NCBI GenBank assembly: GCA_021432655.1
Contig: MU271186.1
Span: 62,001-126,000 of the forward strand
DNA: 64,000 bases
Reading direction: 5' to 3'
DNA from: Atractiella rhizophila
Lineage: Eukaryota
The notes beneath the pieces are model-generated. The model was not told where the DNA came from, did no database searches, and worked only from the letters and a program-made list of their open reading frames with translations. The position numbers were made by a program, and so were the translations under genes. This document shows positions 15,685 to 54,160 of this stretch, piece by piece (position 1 is the first letter of the stretch; every line of letters begins with the position of its first letter).

Positions 15685-16377
15685 TCTTAGGGAGAAGAAT
15701 TTGGTGATAAGTTCGTCGTGTCGGACTGAAAGAGAACGAAGTGCGTTTCGTGATGGAAATTGCGAAAGAGCTTGCTACACCACATCAACGGTCAGAAAAA
15801 GAGCCATTTAGTTTACAATGGCACGAATACATACCTTTCTATGTTTCTGATGCTATCACTTGGTCGTTTCGTCGTTTCTGGTTCCGTTTGGGTGGCAGCT
15901 GAGTAGGGCTAGGGCTGCTTTGGGTCAGAAAGACTGCACGTGATATCAACACGTCTGAAACGCCTAATATCCCTCAGAACTACCATATCAAAGTTGTGTG
16001 TTCGTGGTGGGAGGTTAGTGAGAAGAAGAACTGTGGTTAAGATGGTGGGTGGTCTGTCCTTTTCTTCTTTCGGCTGTGTGTTGTCTGTTCTGTTCTAAAT
16101 CCGACTTCCGTGAAAACACTCAGAGTTTCCTGTGGATATCTCAAGATTTGGTCTCTTTATGACAAAATTTAATAAACTATAATATATATCTGTTTATTCA
16201 TACTTATTTGAGGAAAAGTGTAGATAAAACACCTGCTCCAACAGAGTTATGAGTAGCTATTGGTTTCTGCACTCTTCGAAGTCATTCCATGAGCGGTTGT
16301 ACTCCGTCGCTATATGCTGCATATTCATATATACAACCTAGCTTATTGAAAAGTATTGCTACAAGTTCTGTCCCAAA

Positions 16378-18395: not shown

Positions 18396-18683
18396 CCTTG
18401 TTCTGTTGGGCAAAGGACGTTCGAACTAGAGCTCGTTCTCGCTGAAAGCAGCTCAGTGTTAGCGCATTTCAAAGTGATACGGAAGAGAGAGCGGCATCAC
18501 ACAGTAGGTAATTATCAAAGACAACCTAGACTTTGAAATGACGATAGAGCGTCTACTAGAAATCTCGCAGACACTGGACATCTGGTAATCGATGCCTTGA
18601 AGTATGAGTCACCAGCAGTCACATCAATCAATGTCCTCTACCACCTTGGGAATAACAGAGTGGATTTTCGTTAACACGTCCAG

Positions 18684-20502
18684 ATGTCGCTTCTTGCAGA
18701 CATTCGACAAGGCCATAAACTTCGCAAGGGAACTATAGTTCGGGATCGTTCTGCGCCGCACCTCACAGATTCGTCTGAGGTTGCACGGAAATACACAACT
18801 TCCATACTTCAAACGAATATGGAGAGCTGGCTACCCTTGCTTTCTGGTCACTCGCCAGAAACAGTCTTTATCCCACTATCGAGGGACCAGGCGACCCTCA
18901 TTACGATTGCTCATAACGATGCTTTGAAACGTGAAGATGCCATCAACTCAGCTGCCAGTGAATACGTAATGATGGGCAGGGTTTCCAGCCCACTCAATCC
19001 TCAGGAAGAGATACTGCGTACAGATTTGGGCGGAAAATTACGAAGTGTCATGGAGTCTTTCGGTGGAGGTTGCTTTGCAAAGCTATCGTCTCGTTCTCCA
19101 AAAGATGCAGCCATTTTATCAGGTGCTTTCGAACGCTGTTATCGTGACAGCGTTTCTTATCTGGATGTCACGGACGAAAATCTCAAAGTCAAGATCCTGT
19201 CCGAAATTGAAGGCGCATGTTTGAAGTTCGTCAACCCAGAAGAAGTTATTAGGGCACTCATTTTGAGCGATCGAGTCTCGCAGGTCATAACCCCCATCAA
19301 GGAGATGTTTACTCTGTTGATTCGCGGGTATTTAGGACATTTTATTTGCAGACGAACGTGAGAGTTGGGGCTTGAATATCGTGGTTAGGGAGTGGCGACC
19401 AGTTCCAATTGAGATGGCAAGTGAACCCGCTGGAGCTGATAATCTGCCGTTTTACCCGTCAGCAGGAGTTTCGCGCGTTCGTTTCGAATAAAAGGATCAC
19501 CGCTATTTCTCAGTACGCCTACGAATTCTGTTCACCGGACCTCAATGTTCCTGCATATCTGGCGCTCACGGTGAAGAAGATTCGACAATTGTTTGAAGAT
19601 TCCATTAAACCGATTCTAGACAAGCACAGCTTCGAAGAGTACGTTATCGACTTCGGAGTGAAACCAGGTGGCCAAGAAGGTGGCGACGATTGGGGAGTAT
19701 TCGTTATTGAACTCAATCCCTTCGCAGAAACAACAGATGCTGCTCTGTTTAGTTGGACCCAAGATTCTGCAATCTTGAACGGGACAGCGGAAGGCGTGGA
19801 GTTCCCAGTATTGAGGATCACTAAAGAACCTCGCAAAGGAGCTTTGCAGAAATTGCCTCAGCGATGGAAAAAGGTAATAGAGCGGGTCGACAAAGAACAT
19901 AGTGAGTTTCGCTCACCAAAAAGTTCGCTTTGTTGACTTGTAAAACGGGTGAGGAACCTCCGTCTTTTGAGATTCGGAATGGATACGAATCCGATGTTCC
20001 ACAAATCCTGGCCATACAGACGCATTATGTTCTTAACACAATTGCGACGTTCAGGACGATCCCTCCGACACTCTCTGAAGCCATTACAGCCTTCAAGACA
20101 GCCACTGCTCAAGGAAACCCTTATCTAGTCGCCTGCTCCTCTGACGCTGTTATCGGCTATGGTTACACATCCCAATTCCGTCCGCAACAGGCATATTCTG
20201 GTACAATCGAACTATCTATCTACCTCTCTCCCGATTTTACTTCCAAGGGCTGTGGCAGAAAACTCCTTCTCCGGTTAATAGACGACTTGCAAAAGAAGAC
20301 AAACTTCAAACAACTCATTGCCGTGGTAGCTGGAGATAATGTTGAAGGCAGAGGAGCTTATGAAAGGCTGTCGCAGTTTTATGAGAGATTCGGTTTTGTG
20401 AGGACAGGGACATTAAAAGGCGTGGGCCATAAATTTGGAAGGTGGCTCGACACGACTTACTTCCAACTGGATTTGAACAAGAGAGTATGTTATCGTTGTT
20501 AA
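18684..20502 (+). CDS. WH2 + Cdc123/R2K-type ATP-grasp + probable C-terminal GNAT fusion protein
   Basis: LLADIRQGHKLRK..DRSAP (WH2). FAKLSSRSPKDA, VREW, MEFRAFV..ITAISQY and FVIELNPF (ATP-grasp). ELSIYL..KGCGRKLL..FYERFGF..GHKFGRWLD (GNAT). Introns 19284-19335, 19417-19465 (GC-AG) and probably 19902-19948. Confidence 0.75.
19949..20502 (+). CDS. GNAT acetyltransferase domain (phosphinothricin acetyltransferase/YncA-like); no in-frame ATG, so probably the last exon of the upstream gene
   Basis: ILAIQTHYVLNTIATF, GYGYTSQFRPQQAYSGTIELSIY and VGHKFGRWLDT. The ORF contains no Met. Confidence 0.85.
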
Positions 20503-20565
20503 TGATATAAACGCCAGAATGAAGGAAAGTACTAAATGTCCGAAGGTTAAATGCGACACTTAGTG

Positions 20566-20571
20566 CACGTG
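20566..20571. promoter_or_regulatory. CACGTG E-box upstream of COG3 (similar sites at 15937, 47334, 57588)
   Basis: (G/T)CACGTGA lies shortly upstream of four start codons. Confidence 0.4.
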
Positions 20572-20636
20572 AGGGAATCTCTCAATTGCCAACTTGACGA
20601 AGCTGAAGCGGGCCCTTCGACAACGATAACAACATC

Positions 20637-23333
20637 ATGAGTAAACCGGCAAATCCAGCTCAACAAGGCAACGTCCGCGTTCTCTCTTTGGAGGAATGGG
20701 AGACTCTTCTCGCGCCACTCACTCCAGCCGCACGACAGAGTGTCGACTCTATTGCCAATGCAATCTCTACAAGACCAGTTCCTGAAGCAGTAGGTGCCTT
20801 GTCTATTCCGTTAAGTGTAGTAAATTCAATCTATACCAGCTGGCCCCTCGTCCCCAGCCAACACGCACACTGTCACGTCCTGGAACGCCAGTCCAACAAG
20901 ATCGTCTGAAACGACAGCCATCACGACGGGAGGTTATTCTCGGCTCTCAGTCTCCGCGACAAGGTTCGAGTCGAGCCAAATCACCTCCTACTGGCGGCTT
21001 CTCATTGAGTACACCGGTTGAAACACCACAACAGTTTTACGAGCTTTTCGCAACTGTCCAGGCGGCCATGGATTTAGAGCAAGAAGCCATCTACAGGAAA
21101 TACCTGGACGAGATACGAGGTTACATTGAACGTTCGGAAGTTGTGTTGGGGAAGCTGGAAGACGGGAGAGGCCTTCTAAAAGAAATGGAAGCGAATCAGA
21201 AATTCGTCGAAGATGGAGCCGAGGCTCTTCAAGATGCCTGCGAAGAACTCTTAGATGAACAGGTGCCTCAATTTTCTATCCGTCCAGAAATGCCCCTGAG
21301 TTGATCCAAATAGCGGTACCTGCTGCATCTTTCCGACAATATCGAACACAAACTTGGATATTTTCGCGAACTCGAATCAGCACAGAGGCTTCTCAACCAG
21401 ACCGGAGAGTCGCTTGTCCTAGAGCCAGAATTCGTCCAGATGCTAGATAAGGTGGAGTCATCCATAGACTTTCTCAAGGCAAATGTGCGTCGTTACCTTC
21501 TCCTTATTTCGTCGCATCCTTCCCTCATGCCTTGTTTTCAATCCCCTCAGCGTGATTTCAAGGACTCGGAGATTTATCTTCTGCGATTTCAGCAATGCCT
21601 CACTCGAGCCATGACTCTCCTCAAAATGTACTTCATCAACTTTCTCCGACACCTTTGGGGCGAAATATCGGCCCTCACTCTCGGGAAAGAGCTCGATCCA
21701 GTTGTTGAGGGGACACTTTTTTATGGGAAGTTTACAACGTATGCGGATACAATACGCCCATTAGTATGGGAGCTGGAGAAGCGAGCTGATAGAGAACCGG
21801 AGGAGTATAAAAGTCTTCTTGGAGAGTGTCACCAGGCATGGACTGCGACTAGAGGTCAACTCATTGGTGCAATGGTTTCAGAGGAAGTAAGGAGGATGGG
21901 GGTGGCAGAAAAAGACTTGGTCAAACTGGTGAGGTGTACAAATCAGTTAAGCTGGTGTTAACGGACTATGACACAGACGAAAACTGGCTGCTCCTACCTA
22001 CGAAACGTCTGCCAGAAAGAGTATGACCTATTTCGCTCCTACTTCGCACTGTCCGGTACTCCAGAGATCTAGTTAGCTGGCATCCCACTTTCCTCTGACG
22101 TTACGAGCTCACCTCTTCTATAGTCAGCAACTGGAGCACCTTTGTGATACTCTATACGACTTGTTGCGACCACTTATCCTCTCATCCACGCTGCCGACCC
22201 TTTGCGATCTCTGCACCGTTCTCTCCGCCATGGTCTCTCTCGATGTCTCGGACTCTGAACCGTCATCTCCCTTAGCCTCTCCCTCCCACTTCATGCATGA
22301 GCAATCCCTCCATTCTTTCCGATTCAACGTTCTCCTCTCTCCTCTCCTCGAAGATGCGCAAACCCGTCTAGTTTTCCGAGCGCAGGCTGTCCTCGAGAGC
22401 GACATCGTTCGATTTGTACCAGCTGCGAAGGATTTGGACTACCCGGAGAAGCTGGAGGGTGGAAACGGAGGCATCGCAGCCTGGAAGACCGCCGACGGTG
22501 GACTGGCTACGTTCGAGCTACCGGAAGGAGACCAAAAGGATAGCTTCTATCCGACTCTCATCAAAACTGTCTGGTTGTTGGGAAGTCTTGAAAGTCGTGT
22601 GGCGGTTTGTCTCTAGCCTCCAGGTTGCAACTTTCTTCATATGAGCATAGGGAACTATTTTTGAGGATTTTGGCAATGAAGCCGTCAGTTGCTGTCGACG
22701 CTCTTTTCATACAGCCGCAGAATCTATCGGAAAGAAAAGCCTGTTGGACTCCAAGCTGTTTCTAATCCGGCATCTTCTCATTCTCAAAGAGGTCGTACGG
22801 AACGTAGACATGGTACAAATTGACAGAGCGGTGGACTTCACTTCGTCAATAGGTTCGTGACAGCGCACTATCTGTGGCTAGGTTGAACCATTTGACAGAT
22901 GTGCTTGGAAATTTGTTGCGAGGGAAATCCAACATTCTTGACCCTTCTACGCTCTATCATTTGGCGTCCAAAGGAATGCCGAGTTTTGCAGAGAAGACAG
23001 TGGACGCAAAAAATGTGCGTAATGTTGCCTGATCAAGGATACGCCATTGACAAATCTAACAGGAACTGGAAGCTGACCTTCGTTTAGCGTGCGAAGAGGC
23101 GATCACGACAGCAACCAACGAGATTAACAAAGCAGCGGGTGAGGGAGAGGACGCGCAGAAAGCAAGAGATGCATTAAAAAGCATCCAAACTCAGTTGGTA
23201 CTTTACCTTGGAGATGAGATTCACGAGCAACTGTACAAACCAATCAAGGTAAGCTGTTCCGCTTGCTTTCCTGCTTGGAGTTCATATCCAACTTTCATTT
23301 CAGGAATGGGTCACAGGGGAATATGGTTCTTAG
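20637..23333 (+). CDS. COG3: Conserved oligomeric Golgi complex subunit 3 (Sec34)
   Basis: PVETPQQFYE, DFKDSEIYLLRFQQCLTRAMTL, LRPLIL..LCDLCTVL, DAQTRLVFRAQ, DLDYPEKL, FYPTLIKT and FLIRHLLILKE. Confidence 0.93.
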
Positions 23334-53971: not shown

Positions 53972-54160
53972 NNNNNNNNNNNNNNNNNNNNNNNNNNNNN
54001 NNNNNNNNNNNNNNNNNNNNNNNNNNNNNNNNNNNNNNNNNNNNNNNNNNNNNNNNNNNNNNNNNNNNNNNNNNNNNNNNNNNNNNNNNNNNNNNNNNNN
54101 NNNNNNNNNNNNNNNNNNNNNNNNNNNNNNNNNNNNNNNNNNNNNNNNNNNNNNNNNNNN
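53972..54160. other. Assembly gap (N run)
   Basis: Run of n characters. Confidence 1.

Follow-up and report, generated by a model that had tools for sequence, protein, structure and literature searches.

A 64,000-nt window of Atractiella rhizophila contig MU271186.1 (NCBI GenBank assembly GCA_021432655.1, positions 62,001 to 126,000 of the forward strand; the window is the whole stretch of DNA analyzed) carries a gene of four exons at window positions 18684-20502 on the plus strand. The gene encodes, in one mRNA, a WH2-like motif, a CDC123-type ATP-grasp domain, and a GNAT domain of the phosphinothricin acetyltransferase (PAT) type. We propose that its product is a three-part cytosolic enzyme of 556 residues in which the WH2-like motif would dock on actin, and we place the probability of this reading at about 0.6.

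Gene structure and the junction between the ATP-grasp and GNAT frames

The start ATG is at 18684 with an in-frame stop directly 5' of it (open reading frame 18675..), and read from this ATG the protein begins MSLLADIRQGHKLRKGTIVRDRSAPHL. Further along the spliced frame lie FAKLSSRSPKDA, IVVREW, PIEM/EFRAFV..ITAISQY, and FVIELNPF, and every one of these motifs is found where an earlier first-pass annotation of this DNA had put it. Exon 1 matches residues 1-200 of a public 377-aa protein (P0001, 'hypothetical protein BT69DRAFT_985412 [Atractiella rhizophila]') with 100% identity, and the spliced product reaches 556 aa when the RNA-supported 47-nt third intron is removed. The features of the gene are as follows.

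18684-19283, plus strand: exon 1, residues 1-200, with the start codon, the WH2-like motif, the pre-ATP-grasp region, and the FAKLSSRSPKD strand and loop
18687-18767, plus strand: WH2-like motif, residues 2-28, with the short helix SLLADIRQG, then LRK and DRSAP
19074-19106, plus strand: FAKLSSRSPKD, residues 131-141, with the R2K-clade lysines K133 and K140
19284-19335, plus strand: intron 1, 52 nt, GT..AG, from the public model and the homologue alignment
19336-19416, plus strand: exon 2, residues 201-227, including R218 of VVREW
19417-19465, plus strand: intron 2, 49 nt, GC..AG, with an RNA joint in an X4 contig
19466-19901, plus strand: exon 3, residues 228-373, the kinase-like half of the ATP-grasp domain, carrying EFR at 228-230, D289, and E309-x-N311 (19709-19717)
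19902-19948, plus strand: intron 3, 47 nt in RNA contigs, GT..GG as placed, slidable by at most 5 nt over GTGAG
19949-20502, plus strand: exon 4, with the linker, the PAT-type GNAT domain, and the stop TAA (20500-20502)
18508-18559, plus strand: possible 5'-leader intron, 52 nt, GT..AG, from a joint 18504->18557 (slide +3) in a 2008-nt X4 contig

The RNA evidence comes from contigs of four public runs (X1 to X4) aligned to window positions 18400-20800. The kind of run X4 is not on record, and we read it as cDNA because its contigs make three intron-sized skips (18504->18557, 19415->19465, and 19901->19949); X3 is recorded as a metatranscriptome from another study. Contigs of X1 (20131-20411 and 20699-20789) and X2 (19057-19216) contain no joints, and these two runs, small shares whose kind is guessed, contributed one sequence difference. 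The contigs differ from the window at five positions overall, four of them synonymous; the difference in the GNAT part is among these four. The sole nonsynonymous difference is at 18772, just after the WH2-like motif, where an X4 contig of depth 5.3 has G for the C of the window (Ser30 to Trp); an allele or an error may lie behind it.

Introns 2 and 3 of the four-exon, roughly 556-aa model drawn in the first-pass annotation are both seen as skips in RNA contigs, and intron 1 is supported by the public model together with an alignment of homologues that continues over the junction (SDRVSQ/DILFA, the slash marking the junction, against SERVWQDMTLA in relatives). No contig of the four runs bridges 19244-19334. 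Ten loose letters that precede 19335 in one X4 contig are uninformative, their sole match in the window (at 16034) being unrelated and at chance level. Intron 2 is seen in one X4 contig as a joint of 19415 to 19465 with two slidable letters. The 47-nt skip that defines intron 3 (19901->19949) occurs in X4, with 80 letters on its shorter side, and in X3, with 21. It retains one copy of GTGAG, and the junction reads ...KEH-SEEPPSFEIRNG..., which sets the GNAT open reading frame in frame with the D123 part. As the first-pass annotation had observed, that frame (19906-20502) contains no Met of its own. The X4 depth in both bins flanking intron 3 equals the contribution of the single skipping contig, so no X4 contig shown carries the intron. 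Two in-frame alternatives for the third intron, with a GTAATA donor at 19874 and an acceptor at 19923 or 19953, are rejected because RNA contigs cross 19874-19901 and then join 19901 to 19949.

The public model resolves this region differently. Its third intron is 19902-19953 (52 nt, GT..AG), the stop follows five codons later, and the 377-aa protein ends ...KVIERVDKEHRTSVF (...KEHRTSVF). Were it right, the gene would code for the WH2-like and CDC123-like parts only, the GNAT open reading frame would be an untranslated relic of a formerly separate (possibly bacterially derived) gene, and the 47-nt junction would be a cDNA artifact or a strain difference. Several observations weigh in this direction and against the fusion. 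The 52-nt intron is the only GT..AG intron here and has a strong GTGAGT donor; no GT..AG placement is possible for the 47-nt junction, which is GT..GG as placed and TT..AG at the other extreme of its slide. The two forms differ by one copy of the 5-nt direct repeat GTGAG that flanks the observed junction; template switching by reverse transcriptase can leave the same kind of pattern. The RNA evidence consists of contigs, which are blind to minor isoforms, the X3 contig has a mere 21 letters on one side of the junction, and the kind of X4 is unrecorded. The GNAT domain is also absent from the relatives examined.

Against the public model, the same 47-nt skip was assembled by two runs from different studies as the sole form, and a template-switch artifact at the repeat is unlikely for that reason; neither the intron nor the 52-nt form appears in the X4 contigs shown. 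The GNAT frame is free of stops for 198 codons and holds every invariant residue of its family, which would be unlikely in a relic, and its composition is host-like (GC and third-position GC of 0.459 and 0.454, against 0.472 and 0.465 for the D123 part). The 47-nt skip could be a genuine noncanonical splice, or the strain that supplied the RNA could carry an acceptor AG that is absent from the window. We consider the shorter public model improbable and the three-part architecture very likely; the fusion and its reading frame, as the first-pass annotation drew them, agree with the intron 3 joints of both runs.

The ATP-grasp domain within the CDC123 family

The middle domain scores 74.4 bits against Pfam D123 (PF07065) on the 377-aa model, where the cutoff is 24, and exon 3 matches on its own at an E value of 2.2e-11 (43.9 bits). 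A profile built from 48 relatives finds human CDC123 (8phd) at E 1.5e-30 and Schizosaccharomyces pombe Cdc123 at 1.3e-25. The AlphaFold2 model made from the 48-relative alignment has a mean predicted local distance difference test score (pLDDT) of 93.3 and a predicted template modeling score of 0.88, and Foldseek ranks Cdc123 chains first to tenth (E ~1e-13), followed by RimK, LysX/ArgX, and D-Ala-D-Ala ligases (Ddl).

Active R2K ATP-grasp enzymes have a lysine in strand 2 of the RAGNYA unit, a lysine or arginine in the next loop, an arginine, an aspartate, and an ExN motif (PMC4431377). The Atractiella protein has the whole set, as K133 and K140 in FAKLSSRSPKD, with roles assigned from motif position rather than from a structure overlay, R230 in EFRAFV, D289, and E309-x-N311. 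S135, R137, S138, K140, R218, E228, R230, E309, and N311 are invariant in the 48 relatives, and F131, D141, and D289 are almost so. Because the R2K residues are kept, the domain looks like a catalytically competent CDC123-family ATP-grasp, and the first-pass assignment of the middle motifs to the Cdc123/R2K clade agrees with the Pfam score, the Cdc123 fold, and these residues.

Two sets of CDC123 proteins have been distinguished: classical CDC123, which is universal, single-copy, and slow-evolving, and a 'second set' that evolves rapidly and is found in amoeboid eukaryotes, Legionella, and giant viruses (PMC4431377). The Atractiella protein fits the second set. Its closest relatives are 20 proteins of 358-400 aa with 40-46% identity (E 3.8e-99 to 3.7e-64), from Mycena, Roridomyces, Favolaschia, and Flagelloscypha and one without an organism name. 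A tier at about 30% identity comprises an Arcella protein, a Physarum transcript, protist transcripts from EukProt/MMETSP, and many metagenome proteins. In an exhaustive search, the number of representatives falls from 1760 at E<=0.001 to 709 at <=1e-10 and to 30 at <=1e-30.

We also considered that this is simply the organism's ordinary CDC123, assembling eIF2, with incidental N- and C-terminal parts. D123 is its best Pfam family and Cdc123 structures are its best structural matches. However, the near, full-length similarity that characterizes classical CDC123 is absent: the PF07065 score is a mere 74 bits, and as a single sequence the protein matches S. pombe Cdc123 at E 3.4e-9 over residues 208-328 only, some 120 residues, against 1e-87 to 1e-99 for Mycena-type relatives. 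The closest relatives are patchily distributed (Mycena-type agarics, Arcella, the Physarum transcript, and protists) rather than spread through fungi at large, unlike classical CDC123 with its universal, single-copy, and slowly evolving character (PMC4431377). This explanation is very improbable, and the earlier description of the protein as a noncanonical CDC123 relative rather than the classical factor for eIF2 assembly is borne out.

Compared with classical Cdc123 structures (4zgn/4zgp and 8phd), the Atractiella protein has the same fold and ATP-binding residues (E ~1e-13, template modeling score by target 0.60-0.75) with 18-20% identity in the structural alignment, and adds the WH2-like N terminus and the GNAT C terminus. 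With the nonclassical set it has in common the D123 domain with its R2K residues, fast evolution, and a patchy distribution that includes amoeboid eukaryotes; the WH2-like motif, the fungal members (Atractiella and the Mycena group), and the GNAT fusion are not described in the part of PMC4431377 covered here.

Some members of the clade carry other fusions. P0202 has a DSPc dual-specificity phosphatase, P0248 and P0255 have FYVE fingers, and P0258 has a Rad51-like part that is maybe a merged gene model. In this clade the ATP-grasp is apparently joined to a range of targeting or partner modules.

The WH2-like N terminus and actin

WH2 motifs comprise a short N-terminal amphipathic helix and a following extended segment with an LKKT/V-type motif (PMC5792643). 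In the AlphaFold2 model residues 3-8 are helical and residues 9-29 extended (sequence SLLADIRQG-HK-LRKG), and the amphipathic helix, L[KR]K, and D-R-S-A-P follow in the same order and spacing as in WIP/verprolin (2a41 chain C) and thymosin-beta/WH2. The motif differs from the WIP WH2 in having LRKG for LKKT/V, and in its position at the first residues of an enzyme, whereas the WIP motif lies within a proline-rich regulator. The WIP WH2 peptide 2a41_C is the first PDB match outside Cdc123 in both searches, with residues 2-27 aligned on 7-31.

The motif recurs through the clade. An alignment of 16 relatives has the N-terminal consensus MSLLxSIRxGxxLRKVGIxHDxSAP, protist members retain it (e.g., ...KLRKTEIKHDASAPKL and ...KLRKTETKESKAPNV), and many representatives start with forms such as ...KLKKVETDDRSAPQ or ...KLRRTATVDKSAPH. 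With Pfam WH2 (PF02205), 6 of 16 relatives match at E<=1; in the set of 48 there are 8 matches at E<=0.1, the best at 2.2e-5. We built a motif hidden Markov model (HMM) from the 30 N-terminal columns of alignment A2, which was chosen for having the motif and is hence biased, and searched it against 202 family proteins, 95 of which are full-length-like (a Met start and an SRSPKD anchor preceded by 100 residues or more). At E<=0.01 it matches 54 of these 95, and 25 of the 66 that had no part in building the HMM; 49 of the 51 matches at E<=0.001 begin within the first 11 residues. The controls, 202 shuffled relatives plus 57 GNAT homologues (259 in all), give no match. As judged from these alignments and profile matches, the WH2-like motif is a hallmark of the clade, and its pairing with a CDC123-like domain is the common form of a whole uncharacterized eukaryotic clade. 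We infer that WH2 plus ATP-grasp was the ancestral design and that the GNAT domain is a lineage-specific addition.

A structure prediction of residues 1-42 with actin gives an interaction prediction score from aligned errors (ipSAE) of 0.84 in all three runs, against 0.02 for the best of three controls; of 78 solved complexes, 51 reach this mark, as do 2 of 108 mismatched pairs. Contacts agree between runs for at least 66%, with a partner pLDDT of at least 67. Residues 2-8 are predicted to contact actin 143-148 and 341-355, residues 13-15 actin 23-25, and residues 16-28 actin 26-32, 55-60, 93, 204-214, and 243, tracing the canonical WH2 path on actin (path as given in PMC5792643). The actin partner is an uninterrupted 375-aa open reading frame (L052:252-1376:-, Pfam Actin 495 bits) obtained by scanning metagenome contigs with a degenerate pattern for a conserved actin motif.

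Several points weigh against an actin-binding WH2. The Pfam scores on exon 1 (E 0.0011, 19.0 bits, residues 3-24) and on the 377-aa model (16.3 bits) fall below the gathering cutoff of 23.1, the matches to the WIP peptide (E 0.63 and 0.44) are not significant alone, and 41 of the 95 full-length-like relatives have no HMM match at E<=0.01, many of them with degenerate L[KR]K forms. The actin that was modeled comes from a metagenome contig, not from this fungus, and because WH2-actin complexes have already been solved, the predicted complex may reflect these and speaks for likeness rather than binding.

The segment could then be a WH2 look-alike within an otherwise real architecture, binding a partner other than actin, such as a substrate protein or the body of the enzyme itself, with a noncytoskeletal target or a small molecule being acted on. 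Beyond the subthreshold Pfam score and the degenerate or absent motif in those 41 relatives, the motif segment has a pLDDT of about 76 in the monomer model, so it may pack on the domain; the GNAT type suggests free amino acids; and targeting modules of other kinds, FYVE and DSPc, occur elsewhere in the clade. Set against this are the presence of all three WIP-type elements (short amphipathic helix, L[KR]K, and D.SAP), correctly ordered and spaced, the rank of the WIP peptide as first nonfamily PDB match, and the predicted actin complex with its canonical pose and wide margin over controls. Moreover, P0152, P0156, P0169, and P0182 have runs of four to seven prolines shortly upstream of the L[KR]K-type motif; proline runs before a WH2 are typical of actin regulators of the verprolin/WASP type, where they recruit profilin-actin. 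We regard a look-alike as unlikely, and on the strength of the modeled complex the WH2-like motif probably binds actin.

The first-pass annotation had called a WIP-type WH2, a call that holds for the elements, the conservation in the clade, and the canonical predicted pose but stays below the Pfam cutoff; of the three profiles at issue, D123 (74.4 bits) and Acetyltransf_4 (63.7 bits) pass and WH2 (19.0 against 23.1) does not. The actin docking that it foresaw is favored by the prediction (0.84 against 0.02, in the canonical pose), although this result may mirror the solved complexes.

The GNAT domain and the proposed activity

The last exon scores 63.7 bits against Acetyltransf_4 (PF13420; cutoff 24.3). 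Solved phosphinothricin N-acetyltransferases match over the full domain (9igk, E 1.7e-28, residues 3-170 on 6-166), and further PDB matches down to E 1e-17 include 4jxq, 5dwm, 2bl1 (PA4866), 3dr6 (YncA), and 5t7d. In a 24-sequence alignment (A3) the domain keeps each of the 19 invariant columns, including E83, Y87, and GxKFGRWLD. TIELSIY and KGCGR are present as instances of the T-x-E-x-S-x-Y motif and the G-x-G loop, and we take the Glu of the former and the loop, presumably for acetyl-CoA, to have their usual roles. By these matches the last domain is a PAT-type GNAT. It resembles PAT, BAR, YncA/MddA, and PA4866 over its full length (E 1.7e-28 to 1e-17) with the invariant residues retained, and differs from PAT-type enzymes in its lack of a start codon of its own and its position behind an ATP-grasp, in a short insertion (DNVEGRGA..), and in L for D/N after the conserved Glu.

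The GNAT relatives listed are free-standing proteins of 144-195 aa, the nearest 41-45% identical, and the named ones are annotated as phosphinothricin acetyltransferase or L-amino acid N-acyltransferase YncA. Where an organism is given, these relatives are bacterial, as are the nearest Atlas clusters; the composition of the Atractiella domain is nevertheless host-like. One GNAT relative, P0018 (184 aa, 34-37% identical), has the same insertion before the last helix and the same T-x-E-L-S-I-Y form; it is possibly eukaryotic, which would weaken a simple reading as a recent bacterial transfer.

Two features of this domain count against the proposed three-part enzyme. Acetyltransferases of the phosphinothricin/methionine-sulfoximine type are known for acetylating free glutamate-like amino acids at the alpha-amino group rather than lysines of proteins, and such a GNAT fits poorly with protein modification. 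No GNAT was found among the 58 D123 relatives with precomputed Pfam lists, nor in the six relatives of at least 480 aa among 149 other representatives listed, which have DSPc, FYVE, or Rad51-like parts instead, so the fusion has no second, independent occurrence in the relatives examined. The Mycena-type proteins stop where the D123 part stops. Gene models elsewhere could conceal a GNAT fusion, as the public model did here.

Each part of the protein is from a known family. A WH2-like motif joined to a CDC123-like domain was not found described in the literature searched, and the GNAT fusion has no second example among the relatives examined; Additional File 1 of PMC4431377 might list N-terminal features. 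The first-pass annotation, made without a search, knew of no described protein with the entire architecture; the WH2-like and CDC123-like pairing is not unique to this gene but common in the clade, and the GNAT domain is what sets the Atractiella gene apart.

The gene lies among neighbors coding for Utp11, a RING finger protein, a lipid-droplet hydrolase, an MMR_HSR1 GTPase, COG3, MTHFR, Alg14, and a PCI protein. A scan of 53 open reading frames at window positions 109-40413 (of 103 open reading frames of at least 110 aa) found no functional cluster and no actin gene. The 2008-nt X4 contig covers 18400-18504 and 18557-18643 and then continues leftward over the divergent, minus-strand GTPase gene; the 18508-18559 skip reflects either splicing in a 5' leader of the WH2-D123-GNAT gene that extends into the start of the neighbor or the merging of two overlapping transcripts by the assembler. 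An assembly gap of 189 N occupies 53972-54160. The first-pass annotation had suggested an effector or toxin among the possible roles; a secreted one is not supported, as the N terminus is the WH2-like motif rather than a signal peptide and the neighbors are housekeeping genes.

In the activity that we propose, residues 2-28 would act as a WIP/thymosin-like WH2 motif that docks the enzyme on G-actin, as the modeled complex suggests. Residues ~30-372 would form an ATP-grasp of the fast-evolving nonclassical CDC123 (R2K.1) branch that, by analogy with other ATP-grasp ligases, may activate a carboxylate with ATP and then form an amide bond. Residues ~378-556, joined to it in frame by removal of the 47 nt, are a PAT-type GNAT that would acetylate an alpha-amino group. 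A linker of just a few residues connects the motif to the body of the enzyme, and the active site would for this reason lie near the subdomain 2/4 face of actin, where we presume the usual correspondence of actin residue numbers to subdomains. More speculatively, the ATP-grasp could form an amide on actin or on an actin-bound protein, and the GNAT could cap the free alpha-amine of the ligated residue or act on an amino acid substrate.

These steps have parallels in earlier proposals. PMC4431377 predicts that nonclassical CDC123 proteins are peptide ligases, links R2K ligases with GNATs, and proposes acyl capping of the product for bacterial R2K.3 operons. Burroughs, Zhang and Aravind 2015 suggested, from phyletic pattern alone, that nonclassical CDC123 proteins may modify the actin cytoskeleton, and drew an analogy to tubulin tyrosine ligase and the TTLL glutamylases, ATP-grasp enzymes that add amino acids to a cytoskeletal protein (PMC4431377). 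Those enzymes belong to another ATP-grasp family and target tubulin, unlike the actin proposed here, and the likeness is in mechanism only, without sequence support. Among the passages of the literature covered, none demonstrates ligase activity for a CDC123-family protein, which tells against the proposed chemistry.

A rotifer-rich D123 cluster of the ESM Atlas (216 members) has PF06094 (GGACT, gamma-glutamyl cyclotransferase-like) in 13% of its members. This co-occurrence and the GNAT of a type that acts on glutamate analogues hint at gamma-glutamyl chemistry, which we offer as a lead only. The WH2-like motif suggests that the nonclassical CDC123 family works on actin, and that actin is itself the substrate of ligation is a tentative, rather doubtful extension. 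It is a still more conjectural idea that the whole nonclassical clade of protists and a few fungi consists of actin-tethered ligases whose N-terminal WH2 keeps hold of G-actin during addition of an amino acid or short peptide to it, with the Atractiella GNAT then acetylating the free alpha-amine of the added glutamate-like residue, so that one polypeptide gives a two-step mark.

For the CDC123-family ATP-grasps no ligase substrate has been demonstrated, and the actin link of the second eukaryotic branch has been speculative since 2015; the conserved WH2-like N terminus makes that speculation directly testable. The public gene model was cut short by an imposed GT..AG intron where RNA has a 47-nt skip, and a domain fusion was hidden as a result. 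Fusion to this GNAT narrows the candidate chemistry to a glutamate-like moiety with a free alpha-amine. If the proposal is true, it would represent a new class of actin modification, a counterpart of the tyrosination and glutamylation of tubulin.

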